The notes beneath the pieces were generated by a model that saw only the letters and a program-made list of their open reading frames with translations, ran no database searches and had not been told where the DNA came from. A DNA stretch of 64,000 nucleotides from an uncultured Gammaproteobacteria bacterium (GTDB lineage: Bacteria; Pseudomonadota; Gammaproteobacteria; JAKDMP01): contig CAWJLN010000008.1 of NCBI GenBank assembly GCA_963843735.1, positions 164,818 to 228,817 of the forward strand, in the 5' to 3' direction. Every line of letters begins with the position of its first letter. Position 1 is the stretch's first letter. Both the position numbers and the translations under genes were made by a program. Shown here piece after piece: positions 40,382-64,000 of this stretch.

Positions 40382-41033
40382 ATGAATACCCGCATGAACA
40401 TCGATTGGCAGCAGGTCGTCCGCCCGGCGGCGGTCGCCCTGATCATCTTCACCCTCTTGACCGGGCTGCTGTATCCCGCGCTGATTACCGGGATCGCGCA
40501 GAAGGTGTTTCCGCATCAAGCCAACGGCAGCCTGATCACCGACGCCACCGGCAAGGTCGATCGGTTCGGAACTAATCGGCCAACAGTTCACTAACCCGGC
40601 TTATTTCTGGGGACGGCTGTCGGTGACTGCGCCCGTGCCCTATAATGCAGCGGCTTCGGCGGGATCGAACCTTGGCCCGCTCAATCCGGCGCTAATTGGC
40701 GCAAACGGCACAATTCAGCAGCGGATCGACACGCTGAAAGCGGCGGATCAGGCGGCGGGCGTGACCAATCCGCTGCCGATCCCGGTCGATCTGGTGACAG
40801 CTTCGGCCAGCGGGCTTGATTCGCAGATCAGTCCAGCGGCGGCGCACTATCAGGTGGCGCGGGTGGCGGCTTTGCGCGGCGTGAGCCAAGCAACCATTCA
40901 GGCGTTGGTAGACGAATTCACCGAAGGGCGCTGGTTAGGGCTGCTGGGCGAGCCGCGCGTCAATGTGCTGGAACTGAATCTGGCACTCGATCAGCGCTAC
41001 CCCCTGGCAGCAAAGTCGGCGGATAATCAATAG
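40382..41033 (+). pseudogene. kdpC: potassium-transporting ATPase subunit C, frameshift near 40,557-40,565
   Basis: N-terminal TM and [14 protein letters not shown] in the frame of ORF 40382..40594; the rest ([28 protein letters not shown]...[20 protein letters not shown]...VLELNLALD) in the frame of ORF 40623..41033. Confidence 0.8.
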
Positions 41034-46311: not shown

Positions 46312-49300
46312 TGATCGAGCGCCGCCAGCACCTCGTCGGCATCGACCTGCCCCCAGTGATAACCCATCGCCGCGCTGTCGCTTTTGGCGCGGCTGGCTTC
46401 GCTGCGCGCCTGATCCTTGTCGCTCGCGCGCAGATGCGCCCAGGCCAGCCCGACCCGGATGTCGGCTTCGTAGATGCGGAAGCCGCCGGCGAGCGCGTAG
46501 CCGAGCACTTCGTTGAGGTCGTTGAAAGCGCTGGCCGGGTCGTTCATGAACCGGGCGTACCAGCGACCGCGCGCCAGCAGCGCCTCGATCAGCACATCAC
46601 GCTGCTGGATGCCGTGGGCGAGGCTGAGCGCCTGATCGTAATGGGCGCGGGCGGAGTCATGATCCCCGGCATCAGCGTCCAGATCGCCCAGCACGCGGTG
46701 ACTGCCGCTGAGATCGCCTTTCCAGCCATTGCGCTCGCAGATAGTCAGGTTGGCCTCGCTGACGCGGCGGGCATAGGCGGCATCCCCGGCGCGGCGCTGA
46801 TGCTCGGCGTGGAAAATACCACGCAGACCGTAAAGGTACTGCTTGTTCGGGTCGATCTTGCGTTCCAGCGCCTCGGCGCGGGCGAATTCAGCGGTGGCTT
46901 CGGCCAGCCCACCGCGCAGGTGCAGCGCACGGGCCAGAGTCGTCCGCGCGTCTCTCTCAGACGTATAGCGAGGGTTTTCATGCATTGTTAACTTGGCTAA
47001 CGCCGCCGCTACGCGCGTTGCTACTCCAGCGCCACGCGCGAGCAACTCCAGCGCCACGCGCGCTACTTCTACGCCCCGGTCGAGCTCGCCAAGGTAGATG
47101 TAGAGCGAGGTAAGGATCAGGTAGTCGATACTACCGTTGAACCAATCATCAGCACTAGCATTGACCTGGATAACACGCTCAATAAATGGCACGGCTGCAC
47201 GCAACCGCCCCAGGCTCATCAGGCACAAGCCGATGGCGCTAAGGATGATGCGCTGGTTGCCGGGACTGCTGACCGCCGGGTCGTGACTCAGGTCGCCACC
47301 AGGGAAGAATTCGGTCATCAGCGCAAGATCCGTCTCCCACGCGCCGAGAGCATAGACGAGTACACCTCGCTGACCCAGATAAATCCGTTTCCTATAGACT
47401 TGCCATGCTTCGTCATACGCTCCAGCATGGCACAGATGATGCACGATCTCGATGTAGGGCGCGAGGTCGTCCAGCGTCGGGAAGCGCGGCAGGCTTTGCT
47501 TGGCGTCGGCCTGATAGTAGTCGGCGATCTGACGGTGGGCGGCGGCGCTGCTGCCGCTTTCCAGCCGCTCGGCGTAGTGCGCCCGGATCAGCGGGTGGGC
47601 GCTGTAGGCGGCAGCGCCGTCCTGCGTCACCCAGCGCGAATCAGGCGGCGCGCGATCAGGCCCGCGACCAGCGCGGCGAAAGCGGCATCGTCCAGCCCGG
47701 TCAGCGGCGCGTTGAGGGCGGTGGCGTCGGTGGCGGTGCGGAACACTTTGCCGAAGGCAGCTTTCGCGCACGGGCAGGCGGAAGGCGCTGAAGATCAGCA
47801 GGAAGGCGCGTTCGGCTGCGCTCAGATGCTCGTCGTAGCGGCGCAGCACCCGCGCCACCCGCTCGTAATGGTCGTCACTCGCCTGCGGTGCGGGCAGGTC
47901 GCCGACGTGCGCCACGTCGCCGCCGAAACGCTCAGCCAGATATGATCCGAGCAGGCTCAAGGTCAGCGCGTGGCCGTCCCAATCGCGCACCACCCGATCC
48001 AGCGCTGCGTCGCTGCCGGTCACGCCGACCCGCCGCAGCAAGTCGCGCCCGTCTGCTTCACTCAGGCGGGTCACGTCGCGCTGGCGATAGGTGGTGTGCG
48101 CCAGCAGATCGACCAGCGGCGCGCGGCTGGTGATCAGGCAGACCGAGTCGTGAAAGGGCGAGGCGAACAAGTCGAGGAAGTCGCGCAGCGCCTCGCTGAT
48201 GATCAGGCCATAATCGTCGCCGGTGTCGTGCTGCATGACCTCGAAGCCGTCCAGCACGAACACGCAGCTCTTGGTGCTCAACAGCCCGGCCAGCAAGCCC
48301 GCCCGCGCTGAGGCCGAGGTCACAGTCTTCGCCAGCGCTGCGCCGCCCAGGTAGGTCAGCGCCGCCTCGAAGAATTCGTCGCTGCTGCGCTGCTCGTAGA
48401 ACGACCACCAGAAGACCGCCGTCGGGCGATTCGATCCGCTGAGGATGGCATCGAGCGCTTTGCGGGCGAGGCTGGTCTTGCCCTCGCCGCCGAAGCCGAT
48501 CAGCCCGGTCACGCGGACGGCGGAGTCGGCGTAGTCAGCGGCGATGCTCGCCAGCAAATCGGCGCGCCCGACCCACTCCGGCAGCACGTCCGGCGCGCGG
48601 CTGAGGTCGAAGGCGGCAGGCGTCGGCGCAGCCTTGACCTGCTGCTGCTGCTGGTCGGTTAAGCGTGGCGTGGTGCTTTCCTGGCGCGGATATGCCTCAT
48701 ACAGTGTCAAACTGAGTGGCACGAGGCTCAGCACCCGCGCGTTGACGCCGAAGGCCGTGTCGCGATCTTTGCTGCTCGCCAGCGGATACCAGGTTTGGGA
48801 GATGAGGCCAACGACAACATTGTTTTCCACATCCAGCACCGCCGCGCCGCTCATCCCTTTATCGATGTCGTCCGATTTCAGTTGCAGTGGTTCGGTCAGC
48901 CAGTTTTCGTCTTCCGGCGCGAAAGTCGAGCCGACGATGACCCCTGAAGCGTAGTTGATCTGGAATTTGTCGAGGCGACGATAGCCCCAACTCTGAAAAC
49001 GGTCACCGTCCGCTTCATCCCCGCTGCCGAGGTGCGCATACTTGCCCGGCTCGACTGGCGATAGACCCGCCGTCAATTCCAGCAGCACGATGTCGTCGTC
49101 ATGGTCAGGCAGGCAGCCCACAACGCGCGCCTCGCGCCGTTTTTCCTCCTCGCGGCGTGCTTGCGGAAAATAAACGCGGATGGTCTGCCCGATGCAGTCG
49201 CGCGGGTGACTCTCGCCATCAATGGCGTTGCGGACGACATGAGCACAGGTCGCAATCTTCCCATCGTCGGAGACAACAACTCCTGTACCGATGATGGCCT

Positions 49301-49370
49301 TGTCCGCGTTGCAGATACCAATGGTGAACTCACGCAACCGCTGGTTGATGACATGCCTATCCTGGCTCAT
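46308..49370 (-). CDS. three-module protein: N-terminal trypsin-like serine protease, central STAND/NB-ARC-type P-loop NTPase, C-terminal TPR/alpha-solenoid repeats (Avs/NLR-like architecture)
   Basis: 1020 aa intact; protease triad candidates TCAHVV (His), DIVLLEL (Asp), GMSGAAV (Ser); Walker A GFGGEGKTSLA and Walker B CVFVLDGFE; winged-helix/arm region and about 350 aa of helical repeats at the C-terminus. Confidence 0.8.
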   Translation of the reverse strand: MSQDRHVINQRLREFTIGICNADKAIIGTGVVVSDDGKIATCAHVVRNAIDGESHPRDCIGQTIRVYFPQARREEEKRREARVVGCLPDHDDDIVLLELTAGLSPVEPGKYAHLGSGDEADGDRFQSWGYRRLDKFQINYASGVIVGSTFAPEDENWLTEPLQLKSDDIDKGMSGAAVLDVENNVVVGLISQTWYPLASSKDRDTAFGVNARVLSLVPLSLTLYEAYPRQESTTPRLTDQQQQQVKAAPTPAAFDLSRAPDVLPEWVGRADLLASIAADYADSAVRVTGLIGFGGEGKTSLARKALDAILSGSNRPTAVFWWSFYEQRSSDEFFEAALTYLGGAALAKTVTSASARAGLLAGLLSTKSCVFVLDGFEVMQHDTGDDYGLIISEALRDFLDLFASPFHDSVCLITSRAPLVDLLAHTTYRQRDVTRLSEADGRDLLRRVGVTGSDAALDRVVRDWDGHALTLSLLGSYLAERFGGDVAHVGDLPAPQASDDHYERVARVLRRYDEHLSAAERAFLLIFSAFRLPVRESCLRQSVPHRHRRHRPQRAADRAGRCRFRRAGRGPDRAPPDSRWVTQDGAAAYSAHPLIRAHYAERLESGSSAAAHRQIADYYQADAKQSLPRFPTLDDLAPYIEIVHHLCHAGAYDEAWQVYRKRIYLGQRGVLVYALGAWETDLALMTEFFPGGDLSHDPAVSSPGNQRIILSAIGLCLMSLGRLRAAVPFIERVIQVNASADDWFNGSIDYLILTSLYIYLGELDRGVEVARVALELLARGAGVATRVAAALAKLTMHENPRYTSERDARTTLARALHLRGGLAEATAEFARAEALERKIDPNKQYLYGLRGIFHAEHQRRAGDAAYARRVSEANLTICERNGWKGDLSGSHRVLGDLDADAGDHDSARAHYDQALSLAHGIQQRDVLIEALLARGRWYARFMNDPASAFNDLNEVLGYALAGGFRIYEADIRVGLAWAHLRASDKDQARSEASRAKSDSAAMGYHWGQVDADEVLAALDQ

Positions 49371-49714
49371 GGCTTGCCCCAGGTCAGTTTGACGGTGATG
49401 GTCGCCTCGGCACTGGTCGTCACCACCGCATCCAAACCGGCATTGAACTTGATGCCGAACTCGACCTCTGCGCCCGAAAGCGACTGCGGGTTGTCGGCGT
49501 CGTGCAGATCGTTGACCAGCATTTCGGTTTTGCGCGCGATTTTGTAGATGGTGTGGAAGGCTTCGAACAGCAGGTCGTCGGAAAGCTGCTTGACGACCTC
49601 CTGCGCTCGTCCGCTGCGTGTAGTTTCCTGCAAGCCGCCTTGCTCGGCAGACGGTTTGGCAGTGATCTCGACCTGGATCGGGCGGTTGTCATCAGTGAAG
49701 TGACGGGCATTCAT
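49367..49714 (-). CDS. small protein (115 aa) translationally coupled to the protease-STAND gene; function unknown
   Basis: Stop overlaps the STAND gene ATG (ATGA); mixed charge, predicted helical (MNARHFTDDNRPIQVEITAKPSAEQGG...); no motif I can name with confidence. Confidence 0.5.
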   Translation of the reverse strand: MNARHFTDDNRPIQVEITAKPSAEQGGLQETTRSGRAQEVVKQLSDDLLFEAFHTIYKIARKTEMLVNDLHDADNPQSLSGAEVEFGIKFNAGLDAVVTTSAEATITVKLTWGKP

Positions 49715-49908
49715 CAGGCGCTCCTGGAGGTGAGTATTAAGCTGATATCATCTATAGTATAGAAGGATTTGGTGAGCTCAGCTCAGAAAACGGTTTTCCA
49801 ATGATGCCGTCATTCGATCTTCTATCCGCAGCGCATGATTCAGTTCCAGCCCCTACCCCACCTATCATTCGCCAGAAAACCCATACAGTTTTCCCCCAAT
49901 CAGCCAAT

Positions 49909-50631
49909 TTACTTCGAGATGACTTCCTCGACCAGTGCCGCCAGCCCACTAGCACTGGGATCATCATCGACCAGCCACTCCCGCGCCAGCTCCTCACGCC
50001 CCGCAAATTCCCGTTCGGCATAGTCGGGAAAGCGCAGATACAGCCAATGGCGCATAACGCCATACAGGCGGCGCTCCTGGGTGGCCTCATCGTCTGGATA
50101 CCACTCCTCCAGCAGCTCGCAGAGCTTGACCCGCAGATCACCCGGCAGTTCCTGCCGAGCCGCCTCGTGGCAAAGCATCTGCGACAGTTCCTCGAATTCC
50201 AGCCGTTCGGCAAACGGCAGCTCAAACGGCAGTACCCGCGTACAGTCTGCCGCTAGGACGATGCGTTCGGTTTTCGTGTTCAAGTCGATGGCCTGAAAAG
50301 TATGCGGGTCGATTGACTCACCCAGCACCAGGAGCTTCCCCTCAGCATCGCGCACCAGATGCCCGGAACCAACTTCGTGGAAGAACCGATCCAATAACTC
50401 AACTTTGATCTGAAGCGCCACTTCAATTTGTGACGGGGTTAACGTGCTCAAGGGGATCAGCTGGACATGCTCACGCTCGACACCGTAGACGCTGTGATCG
50501 AGGAATAAGGTCTCGTACCACCCACTCACCGCTAAATCTTCAATGACCGCCGGTTGGTCGATCACCAGGCCCGATTCTGGGTCGTGGTAGCGGACATGAA
50601 CGACATCATAAATCAGAGGACGACGTGACAT
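49909..50631 (-). CDS. hypothetical protein (240 aa), same strand and about 195 bp upstream of the small-protein/STAND/nuclease operon
   Basis: Long ORF with a coherent hydrophobic pattern; acidic C-terminus; no recognised domain. Confidence 0.4.
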   Translation of the reverse strand: MSRRPLIYDVVHVRYHDPESGLVIDQPAVIEDLAVSGWYETLFLDHSVYGVEREHVQLIPLSTLTPSQIEVALQIKVELLDRFFHEVGSGHLVRDAEGKLLVLGESIDPHTFQAIDLNTKTERIVLAADCTRVLPFELPFAERLEFEELSQMLCHEAARQELPGDLRVKLCELLEEWYPDDEATQERRLYGVMRHWLYLRFPDYAEREFAGREELAREWLVDDDPSASGLAALVEEVISK

Positions 50632-51005
50632 CCGATTGAACTCCTACTCTATTTAGGCACTCAGGTCATGATCTTCCTCTCTACTCCAGCTCACCCGACG
50701 AGTTTTCCATTAAGCAGCGGTTGAACTTTCTGGGCAACTTCCCTCAGAATCATTCTGGGGAAACCGCTGGGGAAAATCCATCAACAGCCGCCCCAAAGGC
50801 CATTTTAAGCCCCAAATCGGCTCGCAGGTGGAATTACACATGCAGGAGGCTTTACGGCGCTTCTAGCCCCGATTTTGTGCGTTTCTGACCCCTTCTACTT
50901 GCCAGTTTCCTCGCTTACTAGTAGAATAGAGTTGCTATTTGAACCGATCTGAAATGTCCTGAACCGACCCCCTTTTCCGGTTTCCTATTCCCAGGATATT
51001 TCTCC

Positions 51006-51587
51006 ATGACTCAATCCCTCCCGCTCACTAACAGTTCCAAGCTCGCCCTCGTCGATGACGACCTGTTCGATGACTTATCTCGCTATCGCTGGCGGCTCAA
51101 CAGCTACGGCTATGTTGTGCGTTCGTATCGCACCGACGCTGGTCGGAACACCTATGTCTGCCTTCATCGCCAGATCATGAACGCTCAGCACGGTCAATAC
51201 ATTGACCACAGGAACAACGATAAGTTGAACAATGTCCGCGCCAATCTCCGCTTCTGCTCCCAGAGCCAGAACCTCGCCAATCGACGCCTCCACCAGAACA
51301 ACTCCTCCGGCTTCAAAGGCGTGATTTTCCAGCACGGGAAATGGCACGCCCGCATCCAAAAAGACCGCCGTGACCTCCATCTCGGCTTCTACGCCGATCT
51401 CCGCTGTGCCGCTCTCGCCTACGACTGTGCGGCCAAACTGCTCTACGCCGATTTCGCTCGCCTCAATCTCCCCGACTGCCCTACCCCACCCGACATCGAG
51501 GCCAAGGTGCTGCATGTACCTCACCCGCCACGCCGCCACGCTGAGCGTGCGGTTTCATCACTTCCATCACCGCTGTATACAAACTGA
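51006..51587 (+). CDS. HNH endonuclease with AP2-type DNA-binding domain (free-standing homing-endonuclease-like)
   Basis: 193 aa; HNH_3-like YVCLHRQIMNAQHGQYIDHRNNDKLNNVRANLR and AP2 domain SSGFKGVIFQHGKWHARIQKDRRDLHLGFYADLRCAALAYDCAAKLLYADFARLN. Confidence 0.7.
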   Translation: MTQSLPLTNSSKLALVDDDLFDDLSRYRWRLNSYGYVVRSYRTDAGRNTYVCLHRQIMNAQHGQYIDHRNNDKLNNVRANLRFCSQSQNLANRRLHQNNSSGFKGVIFQHGKWHARIQKDRRDLHLGFYADLRCAALAYDCAAKLLYADFARLNLPDCPTPPDIEAKVLHVPHPPRRHAERAVSSLPSPLYTN

Positions 51588-51664
51588 TCGAGCGCATCCA
51601 AAAGGCGGGCAACAAACCTGTTCGTATAGCCTATATCAGTGATTTCGATCCCGCAGGTGCGTCG

Positions 51665-52225
51665 ATGCCGCTGGCCTTCTCCCGCAAGCTCGAATTCATG
51701 CTGGTCAAGTACCTCGGCGATAAGGTCGATGTGCGGCTCAAGCAGATTGCCCTCAATCAGCAGCAGGTCGAGCAGTACGACATCGTGCGCGTCCCGATCA
51801 AGGAGACTGAGCTGCGCGCCGGTCGCTTTGAGGCTACTCATGGTGGCGTGGGCGGTGCCGAGCTGGACGCTCTCGAAGCGCTGCACCCTGGCACCCTGGC
51901 GGCGATGGTCGAGAATTTCTTCGAGGACTACTACAGCCACGATGCTGCCCGCTTCGCCGAACGGCAGGCCCGCGCGCTGCGCCAAGACGTTCAGGAACAG
52001 CTTGAGGCTATCCGCGAGGAATATGCCGAACAGTTCGACGCCCTGAAAGCCGCGCTGGATGAGATGCGCGCTGTGAAGCCAAGCCAGCGCTATACCGTCG
52101 AGGCGTTCAAGGCGGAAGTCGAAGAAACCGACGACTGGCTGTTCGACAGCAGCCGGGACTATTTCGAGCAGCTAAAGTCGTATCAGGCGCACAAGAATGG
52201 GCACAACCTGGCGGACGCCCGATGA
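51665..52225 (+). CDS. hypothetical protein (186 aa), possibly phage-related
   Basis: ATG 51665 with AGGTG RBS; acidic and coiled-coil rich; no recognised domain. Confidence 0.4.
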   Translation: MPLAFSRKLEFMLVKYLGDKVDVRLKQIALNQQQVEQYDIVRVPIKETELRAGRFEATHGGVGGAELDALEALHPGTLAAMVENFFEDYYSHDAARFAERQARALRQDVQEQLEAIREEYAEQFDALKAALDEMRAVKPSQRYTVEAFKAEVEETDDWLFDSSRDYFEQLKSYQAHKNGHNLADAR

Positions 52226-52243
52226 GCCCGCGTTGATTCAGTT

Positions 52244-53470
52244 TCAGGCAGCGCCCTCCCCTACCCGTTCCAGCCATTCTTCCTTGAGCAGACAGCAAAT
52301 CTCCACTGGCTGCCCGTACACGTCCCCCAGCACCCGCTTGATCAGCCGAGCCAGCCGGTAGCGCAGCAGATCGCGCGCGTAAGCCTGAAAAGCGACCAGC
52401 ACGAAAGTGTGGGTGTCTGGCTCGAAATCGACCAGCACTGCGGGTTGGAGTGCCTGATAGAACGAGCCAGAGTCCATTTGTAGTTGCAGTTGATGAGCCG
52501 CCCACAGCCAGGCGTCCTTCACCGTTTCCCCGGCTTCGCTGAAGCGCGTCCAGGGGATATTCAACCGTTCCGTTGTCGGCAGTGGGGTTTCTTGGACAGT
52601 TTCCGGCGCTTCGTCCAACTCCGTCTCGGTGAATATCGCCCAGGCTTGCGGGTTCGAGGCCGCTGGCGCGGCGGCCACCAACTCGTTTGCCAGCGCCCGG
52701 ACGACATAGTTCCAACTGTGCCCCCGCGGCACGCAGCGGTCGAGGACTTCGCGGACTTGGATTGCTCCCAGCCGGTCAAGCTGTGTCCGTAACAGCGGCT
52801 GAATGCTCTTCTTTAAATGGCCGAAGCGTTTTTCGTAAGTGGCAAATATCTGAAAATCGGAATCATCGTCCGGGTGGAGGGTGGGCTCAGGTTGAGACTG
52901 ATCTTCTGAAATGGATTCTGATGAAGTAGTCTCTGTATCCGTAGAAGACCCTACGCAATGTTCAGTATCCATACCGGGCAATGTTAAGGATCGATCCTTA
53001 ACATTGTTGGGGATCGATCCTTGACATTGTTCAGGATCGCCCTGCCCGAGCAGCCGTTGGATCGTTTCCAGAAAAACGTCGCGGTTGACCCGGTAATGGA
53101 CAGTCGGCGCGCCGGTCTTGTGCGCCTTCTTGACCACCGTTTCGATGCCCAGGTCATGCAGCGTGAACTGCGTCCGTTTGACACGCGGATCGCCCTGTAC
53201 GATGCGGCGCACCTGCGCCTCGCTCAGGCCGAGTTCGGCTTGCCAATCGGCATAGCTTTTGTAGAACCAGCCCTCCGGGTCTTGGGTGCGTTCCGACCAG
53301 TAGAGAATCTGGTTGAGCAGCATGGCGGCCAGATGATCATCGTCGAACAATTTGAGAAACGGTTTGGGGCACACACTGACGGTATTGTCACTGTAGGACT
53401 CGCCGAGCAGCGCTAACACTGCTTTGCGGAAACTAGCGCGGGGTTTGGGGTGTGGTAAAGTCATTTGCAT
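52244..53470 (-). CDS. putative replication initiator (N-terminal winged-helix-like DNA-binding region, acidic Ser/Thr-rich linker, C-terminal DnaD/DnaB_2-like domain)
   Basis: 408 aa; the C-terminal third has the YE..FG...L...W pattern of DnaD-like replisome-organiser domains (ATYEKRFGHLKKSIQPLLRTQLDRLGAIQVREVLDRCVPRGHSWNYVVRAL); the linker coincides with the DNA repeats at 52955-53035. Confidence 0.5.
   Translation of the reverse strand: MQMTLPHPKPRASFRKAVLALLGESYSDNTVSVCPKPFLKLFDDDHLAAMLLNQILYWSERTQDPEGWFYKSYADWQAELGLSEAQVRRIVQGDPRVKRTQFTLHDLGIETVVKKAHKTGAPTVHYRVNRDVFLETIQRLLGQGDPEQCQGSIPNNVKDRSLTLPGMDTEHCVGSSTDTETTSSESISEDQSQPEPTLHPDDDSDFQIFATYEKRFGHLKKSIQPLLRTQLDRLGAIQVREVLDRCVPRGHSWNYVVRALANELVAAAPAASNPQAWAIFTETELDEAPETVQETPLPTTERLNIPWTRFSEAGETVKDAWLWAAHQLQLQMDSGSFYQALQPAVLVDFEPDTHTFVLVAFQAYARDLLRYRLARLIKRVLGDVYGQPVEICCLLKEEWLERVGEGAA
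52955..53035. repeat. iteron-like palindromic repeats inside the replication-initiator coding sequence (candidate origin)
   Basis: caatgttcagtatcc / caatgttaaggatcgatccttaacattgtt (perfect 26-bp palindrome aatgttaaggatc|gatccttaacatt at 52980-53005) / ggggatcgatccttgacattgttcaggatcg; motif (c)aatgt(t/c)aag(g)atc occurs about 4 times in both orientations. Confidence 0.5.
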
Positions 53471-54013
53471 CGATCCTTCAATCGAGTATAAGTGAGACGC
53501 CTGTTCATCGGCGCTGATCGACCAGATCAGCCCACTACCAGGGCATCAGTGCTTGCTCCTACCCAAACAGATCGATGTAATGGGTTGAAAAAAAGGAAAA
53601 TTAAACCTTAGGCTCGCAGGGCTTGCCTTTTTCAGGCATTTACGTTACCATTTGAGGTAACAAAGCCTCGGGCTATTTGCCCTGCGGGCCGCATATACAA
53701 TCTGTAGGGCAAAAGTGGCTTCGTTGCTTGGTCGGCATGTGGAAGCCTCTTTTTGCGTTAGGGTGCTGCACTGTTTCTAAGTGTCCACCATCGACACTGC
53801 TACATAATTCGGCTACATAAATCACTCCTCAAATAAACAGCCCCAAAGGCGGAAAGCTGCCGTTTGTGGCCGATCTTCAGTCCCAAGAAGTCATTCTCAA
53901 AACGGCGTTGGTAGTCATTACTAATCTGATCACCAACGTCTAAAACTATACCCGAAAACGGGCGATTTAAGCAAGCAATTCGATCCTGCCCTACTCGGCC
54001 TCTGGCGATCAGC

Positions 54014-54454
54014 CTAATCGAAAAAGCTGCTGGCATAGTTCTTCAAGAAGTTGTCGGCGACAGTCTTGGCGCTGGCTTTGCTGCTGCCGGTGATGACCAC
54101 GCCCGGCTCATCGCTGGGCGCTGAGTGCATCCGGGGCGCACCTAGTGGCGGCTGGATCGGAACATTGCCTTGTGCCAGCAGCAGCGCTTCCAGGCGGCTG
54201 ATTTGTTCCTGTAGCCGCTGCTCAGTCGGCACGGGAACGGGCTGTAGGGCTTCGCGTACCCAGGGGAATAACTCGAACAAAACCACGGTCTGCCCGGCGC
54301 GCAGGTCGCAAATCAGGCGAATACCGTCACGGATAGTTTTCGCAAATAAGCGTTCTTGTTTCAAAACTTCAATCTGCTCTATCAAAGCGTCTTCTTCTGT
54401 TTTAGTTGTGTCCAACCAAAACATGAACTTAAGTCGGAATCCCTGTTTGGACAT
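54014..54454 (-). CDS. hypothetical protein (about 146 aa from the second Met), divergent from the MerR-like gene
   Basis: ORF 54014..54514; internal start MSKQGFRLKFMFWLDTT... is more plausible; no recognised domain. Confidence 0.3.
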   Translation of the reverse strand: MSKQGFRLKFMFWLDTTKTEEDALIEQIEVLKQERLFAKTIRDGIRLICDLRAGQTVVLFELFPWVREALQPVPVPTEQRLQEQISRLEALLLAQGNVPIQPPLGAPRMHSAPSDEPGVVITGSSKASAKTVADNFLKNYASSFFD

Positions 54455-54590
54455 TTGCGATACTTTCAGTCTAGGCTTACACTTAGTGCAACTGTCACTT
54501 AGTGATAGTAACATAAAATAGGCGTTTATCCAAGCTGATGATCATCGTAGCATTAAACTAGTTTCATTTGGGCTTTGAGTTTACATGGAT

Positions 54591-54849
54591 GAGCGCTCAC
54601 TGGACGTTAAATGTGACGGTAAAGACCAAGTAGGGCTAACTCATCCAGGAATTGATGCTTGGTGGAGCCAAAATCGGAGGCTAATGGACTTAGAGATAGC
54701 GAAAACGAGCGCTCACTGGACATCAAATGTGACAGCCTTTCCAATGCCCACCAGCTTGTGCTACAACGCAATTCTCAATTCATGTTAAATTAGAGCTTCT
54801 TGGACTTAGAGATATGCTGAGTGAGCGCTCACTGGACGTAAAATTTGGC
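54591..54849. repeat. three about 27-bp direct repeats about 116 bp apart in the divergent intergenic region (candidate operators / regulator binding sites)
   Basis: gagcgctcactggacgttaaatgtgac (54591-54617), gagcgctcactggacatcaaatgtgac (54707-54733), gagcgctcactggacgtaaaatttggc (54823-54849); copies 2 and 3 are each preceded by ggacttagagata (54686, 54802); the gagcgctc core is palindromic. Confidence 0.6.
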
Positions 54850-54865
54850 AACCATCTCTTAAACA

Positions 54866-55429
54866 GTGGGTAATTTCCAAATGGCATATACAACCAATGA
54901 CTTGAAAACGTTGTTTAACGTTGCTCCAGAAACAATTCGGAATTGGACGCGAGAGTTTGCTCGCCACTTATCGGTTACGGCTAATCCTGAGAATGGCCGT
55001 ACTCGGATTTACAATGAGGAAGACCTCAAAATTATCGATCTCGTTCATCAGATGCGTGATCAGGGCCATCCTTATGAAGAAATTCATGCTGCGCTGGACG
55101 CAGGGCAGCGTGGAGCAGGCCCAGGCGTATCCCCTGAGGAACTCAAATCGATAGTCACAGGGGAGACTGAACGGCAGCTTTCCCTCGAAATTCAAATGCT
55201 GCGCCGTCAGCTTGCTATTGCGGACGAACGACTTCAGGAACTGGATGCGCTGCGTGAGCAGAATATCCGCCTGGATGCCGAGAAAGAAGCGGAAAAACGT
55301 CGCACTGATGAAATCAGCCTTCGGTTGAATGAGACTCAAGAGAAACTTGAAGCGCTTCTACGGGAGGTTGGACGCGCTTATCACGAGGGTTATATGGATG
55401 CTCTGAAAGAGAGCAAAGATCAAGATTGA
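54866..55429 (+). CDS. MerR-family helix-turn-helix regulator with C-terminal coiled coil
   Basis: 187 aa; N-terminal YTTNDLKTLFNVAPETIRNWTREF (MerR-type HTH) followed by a heptad-rich region (QLSLEIQMLRRQLAIADERLQELDALREQNIRL...). Confidence 0.65.
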   Translation: MGNFQMAYTTNDLKTLFNVAPETIRNWTREFARHLSVTANPENGRTRIYNEEDLKIIDLVHQMRDQGHPYEEIHAALDAGQRGAGPGVSPEELKSIVTGETERQLSLEIQMLRRQLAIADERLQELDALREQNIRLDAEKEAEKRRTDEISLRLNETQEKLEALLREVGRAYHEGYMDALKESKDQD

Positions 55430-55599
55430 GGTTCCTTGAGCCAGTTCTATCCAACTAGAGCTGAACGTGTGCCATGTCAGAATGTATCCGAAGCTTCGAC
55501 AGACTTTTCGCGGGAAATGTGGCACGATAGATGGTATCTGGTTCATCTGACAAGTTTGGTGCTAGACAGTGGAGTTGGTGTTCACTCTCTAATTTGGAG

Positions 55600-55905
55600 T
55601 CATAACATGAGTGCACTTGAGAGAGAGAGATTATTGAGAAGTTTCACCAGTTGGACAAAGATGCGCAGCAGCGAGTACGAGCGCTGATTGATCAGGAAGC
55701 AGAAGGCGGGCAGGGCGTCCGCGCTGTCGGGATCATCCACCAGCGAGGCGAAAATCACCGCCCGCGCCGCCACCAACGGTCGCCGCGCCCACCACAGATG
55801 CAGCGTGGACGGATGCCCGTGCCGGATGGATTTCTCGCGGGCGCTGGCGACATCGATCGCTTCCAGCGGCAGCGCGACTTCGATCAGCTTTTTACGAGTG
55901 GTCAT
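55600..55905 (-). pseudogene. N-terminal fragment (about 100 aa) of a DUF1156-family protein (putative defence-associated methyltransferase); body of the gene missing
   Basis: [59 protein letters not shown] is the conserved DUF1156 N-terminus; similarity decays after about 65 aa and the ORF stops at 55600, whereas full-length members are several hundred aa longer. Confidence 0.55.
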
Positions 55906-56348
55906 GAGGCGTTTTCCGGTGAAACTAGGGTAATTTGGTCATTAAAACGTTTGAGGTCGGCTGTATTCAGGGTCAATAGGGTGTCGATGCCGTATACCAG
56001 CATGGTCGCGACGATGTTGGTGTCATGCACCTGCTTGCCCGCCGTCGGATAGGTTTTCAGGAGTTCCAGTAATTTGACACGCACAGCGACGGTTTCGTCG
56101 GCAATCTGAAACAGCGGCGTGATTTTGTTGATTTCATCGACCACTTCCCCCATCGTCAGCGGTATTTTGAGCGTTTTCGGATGCGTCGCTTGCACCATAA
56201 ATTCGCGGATGACCTGCCCATTGATCCACAGTTCGGTATTTTCGCGCAGCATTCGCCGGAACAGGGTGTCACATTCGGCGTGCAGGTTCATATCGGTGAA
56301 GACCGTGCGCAGCAAAATATTGGTATCGACAAAGGCTTTAACGGCCAT
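55902..56348 (-). CDS. vapC: PIN-domain ribonuclease toxin VapC
   Basis: Start at [13 protein letters not shown] (Met 15 of ORF 55902..56390); PIN acidic residues (D in VDTN, E in ...HAECD..., D in VHDTN...). Confidence 0.8.
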
Positions 56349-56568
56349 CGTCGTCGTACCAATCCTCACGGCGCACCGAAGGCGCTTCATTCATCGGATT
56401 ACTCAGCGTCGCCGCGTCCAGCAGTTGCAATTTTTCATCGACGGTCAGCGGGCGCTGTTCGGCACGGCGTGCCAGCACCCGAACAATCAGGGTCTTTTGT
56501 TGCTCTTCTGGGAGCTGCTCAACCAGTTCAATCAGTTGCTCGTAGTCAATTTTCAACTGCACAGCCAT
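56338..56568 (-). CDS. vapB: VapB-type antitoxin (small DNA-binding protein)
   Basis: 76 aa; overlaps the vapC start by 11 nt; typical toxin-antitoxin gene organisation. Confidence 0.55.
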   Translation of the reverse strand: MAVQLKIDYEQLIELVEQLPEEQQKTLIVRVLARRAEQRPLTVDEKLQLLDAATLSNPMNEAPSVRREDWYDDDGR

Positions 56569-59500
56569 TATCGTGGCTCCTCGCTCATTGCCAGTAGGTC
56601 ACCTAGATTATAGTTCACGCTGGTCACATTCAAGTCGGGTTCGCGGCTGAACGGTTGGCGCACATACCGCGCCGGACGCGCCGCCTGTCCCTCAATCTCC
56701 ACCAGCGCCAGGATAAACTGCTCTTGAGTATTGAACGCCGTCAAAATCTCGTTGCGCGTCACTGTGACGGTATGCGCATCCGGCGCGCCGCCCCTTCACC
56801 TCGATGAAGCGCAGCCGCCCACTGCGCCCGTCGCGGCTCTCAATGTCATAGCCGATCTTCGCGCCGCTCACATCGCGCGGATCATTCCCCAGCGCGATCT
56901 CAGCTTCCGTCACCGCCCGCATGGCGATCTGCTCCGTGATGCGAGTGTCCAGAGTTGCTGCTAATCCGTCACTATCCGTCACTAGCCCGATGGGGACGAT
57001 CAGCGCCCCACCCATGATGGTTGGCGGCGCGGCGGTGATTTGCCGCTCCTGCTCAAGCTGGATTTTGCGCTGCTTCAGCCGCTCGGCCAGCCGATCCGCC
57101 CGTTCCTGCGCCCGCCCGGAATTGAGCTTGGCGTTAGGCTTGCCTGCTTGTTCCTGCGCCCGTAGTTCGCCTGCGCGGAAGTCCCAGTAGTTGATTTCTT
57201 TGGTCAGCCGCTCCTGCACCGCCGCCTCAATTTTGGCAATCAGTTCCAGCCGCCGCTGGCGTACCCGCTCCAAGTGCGGCGGCACCAGTTGCTCAATGGC
57301 GTAGGCTGTCGCCTGCCGTTCTAACGCCGTCCCCTTCAGCCAGTCCCGTTCCAATACCGGACGCAGCAGAGCGATTTCTTCGGCAGTTGCCGGTCGGTAG
57401 TCGAGATAGAGTGCGCCCCCGCCCGCTCGCACTTTTCCCTCGGCATCAATCTCCACAAAATGCACCTCCCGCGAGATGATTCTTCTCTCAAAACCGGGGG
57501 TTGGCGCTGCATCCCGGATGGCTTGTTCCAGGTAGAACAGGGCGCGGGGCTGGTCGCCTGCGTCCGTCTCATCGATCAGGATAGCACCTTGTTGCAGCAC
57601 GTCCCGGAATCGTTCTAGCAGCAGCCCAATGGTCGCATCGAGCAGGGGATGACCAGGGCAGATAAAGGCCGCAGGCGGCAGGTTCAACTGGTTGATCAGG
57701 GATTTCTCAAAACAGATACGCTCATACCGGGTGCTGATCGCGCCCAAACCGCGCTCTTTAGCCCAGTGGCGAATGCTGGCTGGGACGTTGTGGATGGCGT
57801 AGCGCCCGCTCTCGCGCTCATAGATTGTGCCGCCAAGCTGCTCGAAAGCTTGCAGGAAAAATGCTTTGATGTAGTAGGGCTGCAAACGCCGGGCAGAAGC
57901 GCGCTCCATCTCCTCGCGGATACGAATAATCTGGCTCACATCGAGCTGCGTTTGTACCAGCGATTCCCGTTCAAGCAGGTCGCGTACATGTTCCCGATCC
58001 ATAACATTGTCAACCACCTGCTCCAGGCGCGCCCGGATGGCTGGATCATTGCCATAACGCACTGCTTCTACCAACAGCTTGCGCAGCGATGTTTCCTGAA
58101 ACAGCTTGCCCAATACATCGAACACCTGCCCATCGAGGGCATGACGCTCGGCTTCCAATTTCTTCAAGAGCCGCTGGTAAACGCCGCCTTCACGCGTTTC
58201 GCCTGCTACCAGATTCCAGAGATGGCAAATCTCAGTCTGCCCAATCCGGTGAATCCGCCCGAAACGTTGTTCCAGTCGGTTGGGATTCCAAGGTAGGTCA
58301 TAGTTGACCATCAGATGAGCGCGCTGAAGATTGATACCTTCGCCAGCGGCATCCGTTGCCAGCAGGATGAATACCTCCGGGTCGTTGCGGAATTGATCTT
58401 CGATCCGACGACGTTCGTCACGTGGTACGCCACCATGAATGCAGACAATCGGTTCGGTTCGACCGAGCAGGGTGGTCAGCCGTTCCCGCAGATAATTGAG
58501 CGTATCGCGATGTTCGGTGAAAATTACCAGTTTGCGCAGCCCTTGAATGGGATCGCGCATTTCTGGAGTGTCTTGCAGCAAACGGAGTAACTCGTTCCAC
58601 TTTCGATCCGTACCACTTCGTCTTAACTGAAGTGCCTGCTGCTCCAGCGTTCGTAAACTGGTAATTTCCGCTTGTAGTTCGGTGATGGTTCGGGCAGCGG
58701 TCGCGCTGTCCACGAGTTCCATCTCAACTGCCTCGACTTCAGCATCGGGAGCATCGTCTATATCATCCCAGTAATCTTCATCCAGAACGGGATATTCAGT
58801 GAGGGGCAGTTCGCGGCTGTGTTGAACATCTTTTAAGCGTTTTTCGAGCCGTTCTTTCCACCGCTTGAGCGATTGGTAAATGGCTTCTGGGGAGGAAGCT
58901 AACCGTCGTTGCAAAACGGTCAAGGCAAAGCCGATAGTACCTTTGCGGCCATCGTTTTCAAGTTGATCAGCCCGGTTAAACTCTTCCCGCACATAATCCG
59001 TAACAGCCTCGTAGAGAACCGCCTCTTCGGAGGAGGGGGCATGGTTGACGGTATAAGCTCGGCGTTCCGGGAACAGCGGCTTACCATCGAATTTGAGCAG
59101 TTTCTCCTTGACCATTCGACGCATTAAGTCGGAGACATCCACCCGATGAACTCCATCCCGGAACCGGCCTTCAAATCGATCTGCGTCGAGCAGAGCCAGA
59201 AAAAGCTGAAAAATCTTCTTCTTTGCCATTGTGGGGCGTGGCAGTCATCAGCAGCAGGTGGCGAGTGAGAGTCCCCAGTAATTTGCCCAGCTTGTAGCGT
59301 TTCGTCTCTTTCAGTTCGCCGCCAAAGAAGGAGGCCGATAACTTGTGGGCTTCGTCACACACCACTAAATCCCAATCAGTTGCTTGCAGACGGGTTTGCA
59401 AATCTTCGCTGAGGCTGACCTGATCCAGGCGGACGATAAGCTGGTCATATTCGGCGAAGGGATTACCACTGCGGGCCGTCTCCGCCATTTCCCGGCTGAG

Positions 59501-60094
59501 AATCTTGAAGTCGAGTTGGAATTTAGTCCATAGCTCGTCCTGCCATTGTTCCGTCAGGTTGCCTGGAGCGCAGATCAAACAGCGCTTCACATCTCCCCGA
59601 ACGATCAACTCACGGATCAGCAGCCCGGCCATGATCGTTTTCCCAGCACCGGGATCATCGGCCAACAGATAACGCAGTGGTTGGCGTGTGAGCATCTCAT
59701 CGTAGACAGCTGTGATCTGATGGGGGAGGGGTTCGATCAAGGAAGTGTGGACAGCCAGCAAAGGATCGAAGAGGTGAGCCAAGTGAATCCGATAGGCTTC
59801 CGACACAAGGCGTAGAAGCGCGCCGTCCGCGCTGAAAGCCCAACGCCGTTCGTTGGTGACAATTTCGAGCAGCGGCTCATCGCTGCGGTAGACGAGCTGT
59901 GAGCCGAGTTGCCCATCAGCACGCTTGAAAATGACTTCGACGGCAGTCGCGCCATGCTGTTGCGCATCAATCAAAGTCACAGTTTGCTGGGGGACGAGGC
60001 CACGAACCTGAATGCCACGTTGTAAATCTTCGAGTTTAATCATTTGAGGGTTCAGTAGATCAAGTAATGCCAACCTGAAAATAGCTATGTACAA
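56568..60094 (-). pseudogene. SNF2-family helicase with C-terminal DUF3883-like (restriction-endonuclease-like) domain; at least two frameshifts
   Basis: N-terminal part (ORF 59171..60094) has DEXH helicase motifs DDPGAGKT, DEAHK, TATPHNG. Middle/C part (ORF 56692..59229) has HELICc motifs (LLATDAAGEGINLQ, NYDLPWNPNRLEQRFGRIHRIGQ) and ...GYDIESRDGRSGRLRFIEVKG. The tail continues in the frame of ORF 56568..56762 (TVTRNEILTAFNTQEQFILALVEIEGQA). Frameshift 1 is in an A5/T5 run at about 59,209-59,215; frameshift 2 at about 56,775-56,795. Confidence 0.75.
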
Positions 60095-60500
60095 TCAATA
60101 GTTATGAAAATTACTTTACTCTCATGAGAGTAGCTTGTCTAGACGCGATCTCTTAAGGGTGGTTTACCTAAATGAATGGGTGTTTCGGTGACTTCACAGC
60201 CACGCCATTTCCGCATTTTCCTCTCTTCGCTTGGCGCTATGGCCGAGGAGCGCCTACTGGCATTGCAAGGATGTGAACCCGACGAATTTCCTCTGCCGAC
60301 TGAGAATCTTCTCGTTATTATGGAAGCCACAGAGCTGAGGTAGACAGAAAAGCACCTGGAGAATTCAGTAGAGGAAACGCAACTTGCTCATCGTTTTAGT
60401 TGACTGGAACCAACAGCACCGGAATAGGTTCCAGCGATCCGCAAGCAAGAAGGGGAGGGGGCGTCAGGCTTATTTCAACCGGCAAGAAGGTGAGATAGGC

Positions 60501-61049
60501 TTACTCTGGGAACATATCTCGGACAGCCATTTTGAAGCCAGGCAGCACCTCGCCGCCGTCGATGACTTCATCGACACCCATTATTTCAACTGGCTGATCA
60601 GGGGCATACACTTCGACGGTTTGGCGCTGAGGACGAACCAGCCAGACGAGCACATCTGCTTCGGCATAGATCGCTAGTTTCCGCCGGATGGCTGGTTCCC
60701 GGTCGGTAGGGGAGACTACCTCGACCACCGGATCAGGGGCTAGAGGGTTATAGCCTTCACGGGCAAGATGATCCTGTCGCGCCGCAGCGACGAAGGCTAC
60801 ATCGGGCGACAGTTTCCGACCTACAACGAGGTAACCGGCACCTTCCCCGGTAACGCGCCCCAACTTGCGGGAGCGAACGAAAGCCAACAAGGCAGCAGCG
60901 ATCACAATCGCAATTTCGGAGCAAAAGGCGTTGGAAGGCACTTCGATGATCTCCCCGTCGATGAATTCAAACCGCAAATCGGCGTTTTCGGGCAAGGCGA
61001 TATAGTCATCAAAGTCCTGAGCGCTCACACCGGTCTTTTGGACAGCCAT
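60501..61049 (-). CDS. Uma2-family (DUF820) PD-(D/E)xK endonuclease
   Basis: 182 aa; FEFIDGEIIEVPSNAFCSEIA ... YLVVGRKLSPDVAFV ... VVEVVSPTD (catalytic D..E.K-like arrangement typical of Uma2). Confidence 0.75.
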   Translation of the reverse strand: MAVQKTGVSAQDFDDYIALPENADLRFEFIDGEIIEVPSNAFCSEIAIVIAAALLAFVRSRKLGRVTGEGAGYLVVGRKLSPDVAFVAAARQDHLAREGYNPLAPDPVVEVVSPTDREPAIRRKLAIYAEADVLVWLVRPQRQTVEVYAPDQPVEIMGVDEVIDGGEVLPGFKMAVRDMFPE

Positions 61050-61248
61050 GTTTCGTATGACCTATCTACTCCATATCGAGTATAGCACGTCAAATCAGGC
61101 GCGCAGCGTGAGCGGAAGTCCGTCAAGGTGAATGCGGTATCACTGGGGAACAACCCGCCCAAAAGCATCCATCATACCAATGTCGAGGCTTTCGCGATCC
61201 GTGTGCAGCATATAATACTCGCGGCGTTTATCGGCATGATGAAGTGTC

Positions 61249-64000
61249 TTATACTGATTTGCCCCCGGAGTTTAGACCAGCTTGAGTGAGAGTTGAGCTT
61301 GATCTCGAATTAGCTGCCGCGCTGTTTTTCATCACCCGCCAAAGGATAAGATGACCATTACCCACCTTGTCATCCGTTTCCAGAAAAGAGACCTCGGTTA
61401 GTTGGGTGTCGAGATGGGCAGCATTATACCAATCCGCGATGGCGCGCAGGCTTTCTGGTGAAAAAACGCTGTAATGTAGTATGACTGGCGTCCCGGCAGC
61501 AAACGCACGTGCCGGATGCGTTGAGCGAAGCTCATAATGTTTGATGTGTTCTTCTATCGGTGTGATTGGACGCCCGTGATCGGTAGGTTCGGCATCCCGC
61601 TTGGGCACAATCGCCAGGATGTACCCATTCGGGCGGACAACGCGACACCATTCTTCAAGTGCACCCAACGGATTAGCGATATGTTCCCAAACATGAGAAC
61701 TTAACACGAAATCCTGACTGCTATCGCGCACCGGAATATCTTCTGCTGAAGCAGGAATATCGATGCGGGCCCAGTCTCCGCACATTTGAATCTGGGAAGC
61801 TCTGTAAAAATCGAAGTCTTCAGCGTCGAGTTCTCGCGTCAGACCGACGTTTTTCGTCTGGAGTTCGAAACGGGTTATGCGCCGCCGCGCCGATCTCGAG
61901 ACCTTTCAATCCATCAAGAAATTGGTGGGCAAGGGGCGATTCCCGAAACCGTAGGCTGCGATTACTGGGAGTTGTAGGTTCAGCAAGCGCCGGCTTTACC
62001 TGTTCACGCAGAATTTGTTGATAAACGCTTAGCGTATGTGCACTTTGTGCCTCGGATGTATAACGCGCCAGAACATCCCGCCGGGCATTTTTGCCGAGTC
62101 GCTCCCGCACTTCAGGATCGGTGATCAGAATGCGTAGGTAGGTATACCAATCATCTGGTTCAGTCGCCAGGAAACCCGTTTCGCCGTGACGGATCGCGAT
62201 GCGGAAATCCTCGGTCGAGGAGGCGATAGTGGGAACTTCGACAATAGCGGCCTCAAAGTATTTGAGGGCACTTTTACCTAAGGTAAACGGATTGATTGCC
62301 AGAGGGGCAATGTTCACGTCAAAATGCGCCGTATCTTCAACAAGCTGCTCCCACGACGTGTATTTAGATCGCTCTACCTGAGCCGCAAAAAGGGATAATT
62401 CCGGGGGGAGCTCAAGAAAACCCTGAACGATGAGCCTTACCGTGGGAAATTCGCTCAGGATGCGTGCCAGGGCAGGAACAGCAGCGGCGAAATCTTGTTG
62501 GTGGGTGGGTGATCCGCTTAGATAACCGATCCGTACCTCTGAAGTTGGCTGTTTTTGTTGCAATGCCTGCTCTGCCAACTCTAATTGGCGATCATTCAAC
62601 CCGTTACGGATGACAAATGCCTCTTTTCCCTGCCTTCGTGCACTATTTGAGATATGTTCCGTGCTGCCAATGAAAAAGTCGCAGCAGCGCAGCATTTGGC
62701 TGTACCCACTCATTCCCGCTACATAGGTTTCCAGTTCATGCCCCGCAAGCGTTGAGGCCGTATTGATGTATTGCAGCATCGATGTGTCGAAAATAAGATC
62801 GTCTATCTCAAACACGATGGGAATGCCGAGATTACGCGCTTCTTTCAAAAAAGGAGCCATTTCGGGGGTATAGGCTACGCGAGCAAAAACCACAATATTG
62901 AATTGCAGCGCTCGCTGGGGCATCATGAGGAACTCTCGCTCGTCGATCCAATTGGTTTTGATATTCTTCTTCTGAAGCTGCTCCTGGATATTGAATACGC
63001 GATAGCGCTTGCTCGATATTTCTGGAACAGGAACAATAAATAAGATGGTGAAATTGCTGAGCATGGGTCGCTGGCGGCTTTCCGGGAATTTCTGCCGAGC
63101 GAGCGCTTTCTTTACGCCGTTCTGAGCTCGGCTGGGAAAATAGCGCCGCTCTCCTCGCAACCAGCGATAAAGGCGGTTGGCGAAGGGAATAACGCCTTCT
63201 GTGCGCAGAATACTGAATGATGTTCGCAGCAGCATAAAGACTCGCTCACGGCTTCGCTGGATTGTGAACAACCGGTGAGACGGCAAAAATTGTAAGCTGC
63301 TTTCTTTCGTTGGTACGATTTGATCATCATAAAGGCCCATAGCGAGGGTAGTCTGTGCACGGAGCTCCTCAATTTGCGCAGTGTACGCCTCAGCAAGCTT
63401 GATACGTTTTTCTTTTTCCCGCCTTAGAGCTGTCTCCAATATGGCCTGAGTTTCACCCCCGCCCGCGATGGAGCTGTTTTTAATCGTTTCATGCTGCTCG
63501 ATCAGAAGTGCGTTCTCCTGACGCACCTGTTCAAGTAGGCTGCGGCTGTTGAGAATTTCGCGTTGCTGATTCCACATATGATTGCCATAGTCCCGGAGAA
63601 TCTGAGGGAGTACCGGCGGGCGTCGTTGAAAAATCATCGCCCAAGCAGAGATATACGAAGCATCTAGTTCAGGGACATAAATCAACCCATGCTGGGCAAA
63701 TCTCTCGATCCAGTATCCGGGTTTTTGCACATTGACATGCGTCGGCTCAGAGAAATCGTCGGGTGTTGACGAAAATACAATGGTATCGCCCCAGCGGGAT
63801 AAGTTTGCAATGGCGACATCGGCCTCCGATTCGGAGAGATGTTCAAGCACTTCAATGCAGGTGATAATGTCATAACGTTTCGTGACCGCGTTTGGGTTGA
63901 GTACATTGTCGATGCTAACGTATGGTTTGAGATGATCGGGTACCTGGCTTACAGCATATTCCGAGATGTCAAAACCTTCCGCCGCGACACCGTAGTTACG
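61249..64000 (-). pseudogene. partial multidomain protein: class I SAM-methyltransferase (N-terminus beyond window end) - coiled coil - GT1/GT4 glycosyltransferase - second class I SAM-methyltransferase; frameshift near 61,855-61,875 between ORF 61820..63850 and ORF 61249..61785
   Basis: Window end region encodes ...DIITCIEVLEHLSESEADVAIANLSRWGDTIVFSSTP (MTase post-motif-II). GT1 C-terminal domain (EAAIVEVPTIASSTEDFRIAIRHGETGFLA). Second MTase motif I GLEIGAAAHNPF, then in the next frame ...IDIPASAEDIPVRDSSQDFVLSSHVWEHIANPLGALEEWCRVVRPNGYILAIVP. Confidence 0.65.

Follow-up and report, generated by a model that had tools for sequence, protein, structure and literature searches.

The DNA analysed here is a stretch of 64,000 nucleotides (the window, 64 kb) from a 238-kb contig (CAWJLN010000008.1) of an uncultured gammaproteobacterium (assembly GCA_963843735.1), and the element of interest is an operon on its minus strand, at 55600-60094, which is a partly deleted member of the Hma (helicase-methylase-ATPase) systems. 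Four tightly packed genes were found there in the order hmaA-vapB-vapC-hmaB', the helicase gene being spread over three reading frames. All of them lie on one strand and are translationally coupled, the successive junctions consisting of a TAATG, an 11-nt overlap and an ATGA, with no gaps (Table 1). The initial annotation had described this gapless minus-strand series as an SNF2/DUF3883 helicase, vapB, vapC and the start of a DUF1156 gene, and every one of these elements proved to be present.

Deletion of two single-base insertions from hmaA yields a protein of 1157 amino acids (aa) starting at the ATG at 60043, whereas the sequence as assembled reads through the frames 60043-59214, 59213-56779 and 56777-56568. 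Over these three frames, positions 1-1172 of the 1176 of the PADLOC HmaA profile (PDLC00659) are covered. The corrected HmaA was aligned over its full length to 80 loci and 120 proteins, and 91% of its residues agreed with at least one of its four closest homologues; no stretch of 20 residues fell under 45% in this comparison, and no other lesion was detected. All the motifs looked for are present, namely DDPGAGKT, DEAH, QRFGRIHRIGQ, GYDIES, IEVK and TRNEIL (E at K+15), the catalytic residues being assigned after Liu et al. 2024 (PMC11232893), and the last catalytic glutamate is out of frame in the sequence as assembled. DISARM DrmD and BREX type 3 BrxHII were rejected as alternative identities for the helicase, with 237 and 226 bits, respectively, for the 845-aa middle piece versus 1083 bits for HmaA; furthermore, the downstream partner is DUF1156/HmaB and no DISARM or BREX components lie there. 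The middle piece is on record as an 816-aa protein (P0099) from a 238,176-bp contig. In several genomes of Moorella thermoacetica we also observed 283-aa proteins (P0123, P0124, P0126, P0128) with about 80% identity to the part of HmaA that holds helicase motifs II-III; these are encoded on contigs of up to 2.6-3.0 Mb and may derive from a split or truncated HmaA.

A scan of one genome per species retrieved 599 relatives of the corrected HmaA, from which 80 loci were kept, covering many bacterial phyla and archaea. Nearly all of these 80 loci align over almost the whole protein (tblastn, residues 1-1156), and the intact homologues in protein databases reach at most 82% identity and come mostly from metagenome-assembled genomes of Anaerolineae and Aggregatilineales. 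Intact relatives share the organisation hmaA (about 1160 aa)-[cargo]-hmaB (920-1020 aa)-[cargo]-hmaC (about 1090-1110 aa), and the HmaC of the closest relative, L105, carries DUF499 and HEPN_Swt1 domains. The locus in the window conforms to this gene order and strand up to hmaB codon 68, where it ends. We identified it as an Hma system because the PADLOC HmaA and HmaB profiles both match and because Pfam recognises the SNF2, Helicase_C, NOV_C and DUF1156 domains; these domain searches upheld the earlier assignments of the helicase (NOV_C being the former DUF3883) and of the DUF1156 fragment. Its kind has already been described: Hma was predicted by Payne et al. 2021 (PMC8565338), partly characterised by Liu et al. 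2024 (PMC11232893) and redescribed in 2026 as the type-1 DUF499-centred BREX-related (BR) system (Nucleic Acids Research 2026, PMC12839542). The restriction-like helicase plus modification locus of DUF1156-DUF499-helicase type that had been proposed from the sequence is therefore this published system, as the comparison with intact loci carrying hmaA-cargo-hmaB-hmaC bore out. The likeness to Hma extends to the HmaA and HmaB N-terminal profiles, which match end to end, to the hmaA-cargo-hmaB order on one strand, and to an HmaA with SNF2, Helicase_C and NOV_C domains that has kept helicase motifs I and VI as well as the nuclease residues D/E-x-K/E. The window differs in that hmaB stops after codon 68, that hmaC is absent from it and that hmaA, as assembled, contains the two insertions. 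Likewise, the Swi2/Snf2 helicase with an active C-terminal PD-(D/E)xK nuclease belongs to the set that defines type-1 BR systems together with the DUF1156 N6-methylase and the DUF499 ATPase, but the window retains only this effector arm and lacks the modification (methylase) and scanning (ATPase) arms.

The truncation of hmaB could be placed precisely. The initial annotation had reported an N-terminal DUF1156 stub of about 100 aa; a truncated stub is indeed there, but only codons 1-68 of the 101-aa open reading frame (ORF) derive from hmaB, its final 33 codons (down to 55600) being unrelated sequence according to the DNA alignment. The stub is 91% identical to residues 1-68 of the HmaB of L004, the closest HmaB found, and DNA homology with the hmaB genes of L004 and L002 stops right after ...CCCGCCTTC, at window position 55702. 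An apparent extension of the homology to residue 88, seen by tblastn with distant relatives, was dismissed as weak chance similarity, since L004 and the DNA alignment fix the limit at codon 68. When the full HmaB sequences of L002, L004 and L068 were used as tblastn queries against the 64-kb window, they matched it only with residues 1-61 to 1-69 (1-68 for L004); the remaining hmaB body of about 870-950 codons is not in the window, in agreement with the earlier remark that the DUF1156 body is missing. The methyltransferase core was likewise not found in the window, and the fragment falls short of the 920-1020 aa of an HmaB. The HmaC proteins of the same three loci gave no match in the window either. 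No record was returned by an exact-sequence look-up of the hmaB stub.

Table 1. Genes, gene fragments and frame breaks in the window, with the hma locus first (positions counted from the first nucleotide of the window)
Feature	Position	Strand	Remarks
hmaA	56568..60043	-	SNF2 helicase with C-terminal NOV_C (PD-(D/E)xK) nuclease; PADLOC, Pfam, tblastn
hmaA, piece 1	60094/60043-59171	-	Pfam SNF2-rel_dom/ResIII; PADLOC HmaA 1-281, 458 bits
hmaA, piece 2	59229-56692	-	Pfam Helicase_C and NOV_C (formerly DUF3883); PADLOC HmaA 274-1104, 1083 bits
hmaA, piece 3	56762-56568	-	no Pfam match; PADLOC HmaA 1110-1172, 62 bits
Frameshift 1 (hmaA)	59209..59213	-	coding-strand T5 (plus-strand A5) with one surplus T; GAAGATTTTTCAGC
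Frameshift 2 (hmaA)	56778	-	one surplus T, outside any homopolymer; GCCGGATGCGCATACC
vapB-like antitoxin gene	56338..56568	-	76 aa; start overlaps the hmaA stop (TAATG)
vapC-like PIN toxin gene	55902..56348	-	148 aa; 11-nt overlap with vapB, ATGA overlap with hmaB
hmaB 5' stub	55702..55905	-	codons 1-68 of a DUF1156 N6-adenine methylase, 204 nt
DUF1156 ORF	55905-55600	-	101 aa; Pfam DUF1156 E=2.6e-26; PADLOC HmaB 6-67 of 967
Breakpoint	55701..55702	.	hmaB joined to unrelated DNA
MerR-like helix-turn-helix and coiled-coil gene	54881..55429	+	Pfam MerR_1; 272 bp away from the breakpoint, convergent with hma
166-aa ORF	54014..54514	-	no known family; divergent from the MerR-like gene
Trypco1 small protein	49714-49367	-	
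STAND protein	49370-46308	-	1020 aa; trypsin-like protease/NB-ARC-NACHT/TPR
PD-(D/E)xK (Cas4-like) and RNase_H_2 protein	46311-44866	-	481 aa
Frame break in hgmA (homogentisate dioxygenase)	near 23375		HgmA_N 2-197 / 197-273 (Pfam)
Frame break in fahA (fumarylacetoacetase)	near 24250		N-terminal and catalytic domains in different frames (Pfam)
Frame break in kdpA	37790-37815		profile 4-431 / 437-548 (Pfam)
Frame break in kdpC	near 40555		profile 2-46 / 45-182 (Pfam)
Compensating pair of breaks in the trypsin-STAND gene	47634-47757		alternative frame reads sensibly (codon-usage Viterbi, translation)
Frame break in a methyltransferase domain	near 61865		seen in codon usage (Viterbi) and translation

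The two genes lying between hmaA and the hmaB stub occupy a position that is filled in most relatives. Among the fetched loci having both hmaA and hmaB, 59 out of 66 carried 0.3-6 kb of cargo between them, and about 88% of the ORFs in this slot were on the hma strand, often beginning at the hmaA stop. Embedding between hmaA and hmaB has been published for 62.7% of loci (bioRxiv 10.1101/2024.01.29.577857), and insertions were reported in 66.5% of loci by Liu et al. 2024 (PMC11232893), who termed the region a hotspot. The cargo that we found included Schlafen AlbA_2 plus HATPase_c_4 proteins (14 loci), GHKL proteins of about 1400 aa (8 loci), AAA_21 ATPases, GmrSD, YhcG nuclease, Macro-domain and PDDEXK_3 proteins, an MNT/HepT pair (L030) and PIN proteins, with a VapBC-like pair in L063. 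These results indicated that the VapBC-like pair of the window is a normal passenger of the slot, probably acting as a second defence or addiction layer; its location inside the locus had been correctly noted in the initial annotation but is not a sign of decay, embedding being the norm. As in the published cases, it forms a tight cassette on the hma strand, and PIN or toxin-like cargo is known at this place, e.g. HEC-03. In HEC-03, however, the PIN protein is combined with an ABC ATPase, whereas in the window it accompanies a small VapB-like protein in the classical two-gene toxin-antitoxin layout, and the closest relatives of the window VapC lie outside Hma loci.

These VapC relatives, at most 57% identical, were found in 22 metagenomic contigs (L082-L103), none of which showed hma genes beside them. 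A vapBC lineage specific to Hma was consequently discarded, and since its relatives are not neighbours of hma genes, the pair is a generic PIN cassette of two genes that has come to occupy the embedding slot. Its assignment to the VapBC family is only moderately firm because the VapC-like protein exceeds the Pfam PIN cutoff (E=5.5e-7, 30.6 bits versus 23.6) but both proteins stay below the NCBIfam ones, with 39 bits versus 73.6 for VapC (TIGR00028) and a weak N-terminal match of 20 bits versus 80 (E=6e-4) for VapB15. The VapB-like protein had no Pfam match. What likens the two genes to a type II toxin-antitoxin system is the 148-aa PIN protein with a small overlapping gene of 76 codons ahead of it that has been inherited together with the toxin gene: in L082, L083 and L103, and likewise in L081, a contig described below, the PIN gene is immediately preceded by a gene for a VapB homologue. 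The pair is referred to here as a putative toxin-antitoxin module.

As the initial annotation had pointed out, the helicase gene contains at least two frameshifts, one of them in an A5/T5 run, and both are present in the sequence. They had been taken as decay of the helicase, a reading that was not supported. Removal of one T from frameshift 1 restores NGKEEDFQLFLALLDADRFEG, the same as in the closest homologues, P0001, P0002, P0003 and P0005. Frameshift 2 falls in the NOV_C nuclease, after the catalytic E-x-K (IEVK) and before the fourth catalytic Glu (TRNEIL), and for this site an independent sequence was available: contig L081 (Logan, run ERR11571143; 1005 nt) is 99.5% identical to window positions 56827-55822, covering the hmaA 3' end, vapB, vapC and the start of hmaB. 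L081 lacks the extra T and reads GCCGGA-GCGGATACC, giving an intact frame, RRAGADTVTVTRNEIL, which agrees with P0003 over that stretch and whose RRAGAD start is common to L004. Frame breaks were then scored across the window by codon-usage Viterbi segmentation with Pfam checks, an earlier scan based on third-position G+C (GC3) having been too noisy; a Viterbi candidate near 18.59 kb was discarded, since two distinct genes, NifU-like and tryptophan dioxygenase, lie there. At least seven breaks were found outside hmaA in about 60 kb, i.e. one per 8.6 kb, in genes that include hgmA, fahA, kdpA and kdpC (Table 1).

Because housekeeping genes are broken in the same way, L081 is in frame at the second site and the corrected HmaA is otherwise undamaged, the hmaA frameshifts most probably arose as consensus errors, in an assembly rich in frameshifts, and not through decay; for frameshift 1, its artefactual nature is what we infer. 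Several observations weigh against this reading. Three more bases of L081 differ beside frameshift 2, so that L081 may represent the allele of another strain; a 193-aa query across frameshift 1 found no near-identical independent fragment; and two breaks in the 3.5 kb of hmaA, where 0.4 were expected, exceed the background (Poisson P about 0.06), although the excess over the rest of the window is not significant. The locus could thus have undergone genuine decay, with the orphan helicase-nuclease gaining two real inactivating frameshifts after the loss of hmaB and hmaC, and everything but vapBC being dead. Such decay would account for a break density about five times the window average, frameshift 2 would cost the nuclease its fourth catalytic Glu and last strands, and a cell deprived of the protecting methylase could come under selection to lose the effector. 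Nevertheless, the broken housekeeping genes, the independent in-frame contig, the match of 91% of HmaA positions to close homologues with no other defect, and the reported lack of toxicity of HmaA alone in E. coli make genuine decay unlikely, though far from negligible. It should be considered that, with core metabolic and transport genes frame-broken alike at about one indel per 8-9 kb, pseudogene calls in this window are unsafe, and frameshifts cannot be used as evidence for pseudogenes in this assembly.

The origin of the truncation was approached through the genes on the other side of the breakpoint, by comparison with L004 and L105, the two closest relatives for which flanks were available. 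Upstream of hmaA and co-directional with it, L004 (5-899) encodes homologues of both the MerR-like protein (40% identical) and the 166-aa ORF (45% identity over a stretch of 99 aa, to L004 301-5, which adjoins the L004 MerR-like gene; tblastn). In L105 (21032-21511), the MerR-like homologue is found downstream of hmaC in convergent orientation, matching the arrangement in the window. The MerR-like gene is therefore probably an original neighbour of the Hma locus, and its product may be a regulator or an island-level companion of these loci. The presence of this gene both at the junction and beside Hma in the closest relatives favours a local deletion. A single rearrangement would have removed everything after hmaB codon 68, including hmaC, and its simplest form would be the deletion of several kb from a locus organised like L105, starting at hmaB codon 69 and ending about 270 bp past the MerR-like gene; that it was a deletion rather than another rearrangement is what we infer from the neighbours. 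The suggestion that inactivation was linked to acquisition of the STAND system or of a prophage found no support, the MerR-like gene being a flank of Hma in the closest relatives too. No phage DNA match was obtained for 49.7-55.7 kb, no convincing att-like or insertion sequence-like repeats were seen around the breakpoint, and the window contains no tRNA genes; no Rfam family was matched in 49-64 kb. We also noted a plus-strand ORF at 55611-55702 (MSALERE..., continuing past a (GA)6 run) that reads into the breakpoint and through antisense hmaB, and which may represent the 5' part of a gene that this rearrangement disrupted.

Against a local deletion it must be said that the MerR-like homology to L105 is just 29%, that the window represents 64 kb of a 238-kb contig, outside which the hmaB remainder and hmaC could lie, and that L081 and a second contig of the same run, L104 (covering 54438-55596), end on either side about 105-120 bp from 55701/2, neither of them spanning the junction. 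The join might thus be an assembly chimera or a collapse, the real genome having a full hmaB followed by hmaC; the assembly is error-prone, and both contigs halt just short of the junction, as they would at branch points of an assembly graph. Small-indel errors do not imply structural ones, however, the ORF runs cleanly over the join, and the gene beside it is a known Hma neighbour, as a simple deletion predicts, which leaves a slim chance for a chimera. A large inversion or translocation with its breakpoint in hmaB, which would have carried the hmaB remainder and hmaC elsewhere on the contig, draws on the order seen in L004, from which that of the window could derive by inversion, and on the small visible portion of the contig. 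A simple inversion of this kind predicts hmaB from codon 69 onward upstream of hmaA, at 60.1-60.5 kb, and that sequence is absent there and everywhere else in the window, so we hold such an event to be very unlikely.

The stub may instead be related to the exchange of cargo. In four relatives, additional fragments were observed between hmaA and the full hmaB: an extra hmaB 5' stub in L017, L019 and L052, and an extra hmaA 3' fragment in L017 and L067 (L017 16315-17039; L019 15363-15647; L052 15117-15194; L067 15972-16064). They flank the cargo and show 77-93% DNA identity to the resident copy, and the stub of L019 (194 nt) has nearly the same extent as that of the window (204 nt). These duplicated and diverged fragments hint at how embedded cassettes swap, and we tentatively propose that the hmaB stub is a recombination scar, cassettes being swapped between alleles via the hmaA 3' end and the first ~200 nt of hmaB. 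Exchange through these two anchors would leave diverged duplicate anchors and, occasionally, one-sided events deleting the remaining system; such a mechanism is not described in two papers on Hma embedding, one of them a preprint. That a one-sided event of this sort left hmaA-vapBC-hmaB(1-68) illegitimately joined to flanking DNA in the window would fit the fragments around cargo in these relatives and the extent of the L019 stub. Yet scars of this type occur in just 4 of about 66 loci, in all four a full hmaB follows whereas none does in the window, and the coincidence in length may merely mark where sequence conservation ends, so this origin of the junction is rather improbable. Altogether, the locus is best explained as a partly deleted Hma system in which VapBC is a normal passenger and the hmaA indels are likely assembly errors, an explanation to which we assign a probability of about 0.72.

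For type-1 BR systems, a restriction-modification-like scheme has been proposed in which self DNA is methylated by HmaB, while scanning and recognition fall to HmaC and restriction to HmaA (PMC12839542). In an intact Hma system, the DUF1156 N6-adenine methylase HmaB would mark self DNA, the DUF499 STAND-like ATPase HmaC would scan for and recognise foreign DNA, and the SNF2 helicase-nuclease HmaA would translocate on it and nick it. This methylase- and ATPase-dependent mode would be gone from the locus in the window because everything past hmaB codon 68, including hmaC, has been removed. On the other hand, Halomonas HmaA alone decreased T4 propagation about 100-fold, an effect that required motif VI and the NOV_C nickase and was not accompanied by toxicity, and about 15-20% of hmaA loci are devoid of hmaB or hmaC (PMC11232893). 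If the hmaA indels are consensus errors, the remnant would still encode a working HmaA plus VapBC, and since HmaA alone can defend, it may persist as a stand-alone HmaA effector with a co-transcribed VapBC-like module. HmaA-only remnants would fit the reported phage defence by HmaA alone. The biological weight of the finding is small: it adds one more Hma locus, with a VapBC-like passenger in a known hotspot and with methylase and ATPase lost.

Other features of the surroundings deserve mention. From about 0.64, the G+C content falls to 0.50-0.60 over 49000-64000. This low-GC stretch contains the Hma remnant, a Uma2-family endonuclease gene (61049-60501), a glycosyltransferase-methyltransferase gene and replication and HNH genes. 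It extends to the window end and has the appearance of an island of at least 15 kb gained by horizontal transfer, in which neither an integrase nor a tRNA gene was visible. Between the 166-aa ORF, for which no Pfam, PHROG or NCBIfam match was obtained, and the MerR-like gene there are three direct repeats (54555-54853) with a spacing of 116 bp and the core GAGCGCTCACTGGACRTHAAATKTGRC; the repeats, whose sequence was confirmed by L104, could be operators or iterons. Further to the left of these two genes lie a DnaD/O-like replication initiator gene (53470-52244) and an HNH endonuclease gene. Near-perfect palindromes (CAATGTTAAGGATCGATCCTTAACATTG and similar) are clustered at 52947-53038 within the initiator gene, in an arrangement that resembles an origin embedded in its own initiator gene. 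Exact-sequence look-ups of the Rep-like protein and of the MerR-like ORF, the latter read from a GTG start, gave no record. Finally, in host-like high-GC DNA, the minus strand at 44866-49714 carries three adjacent genes, for a Trypco1 small protein, a trypsin-STAND protein and a PD-(D/E)xK (Cas4-like) and RNase_H_2 protein, which resemble a separate defence module.

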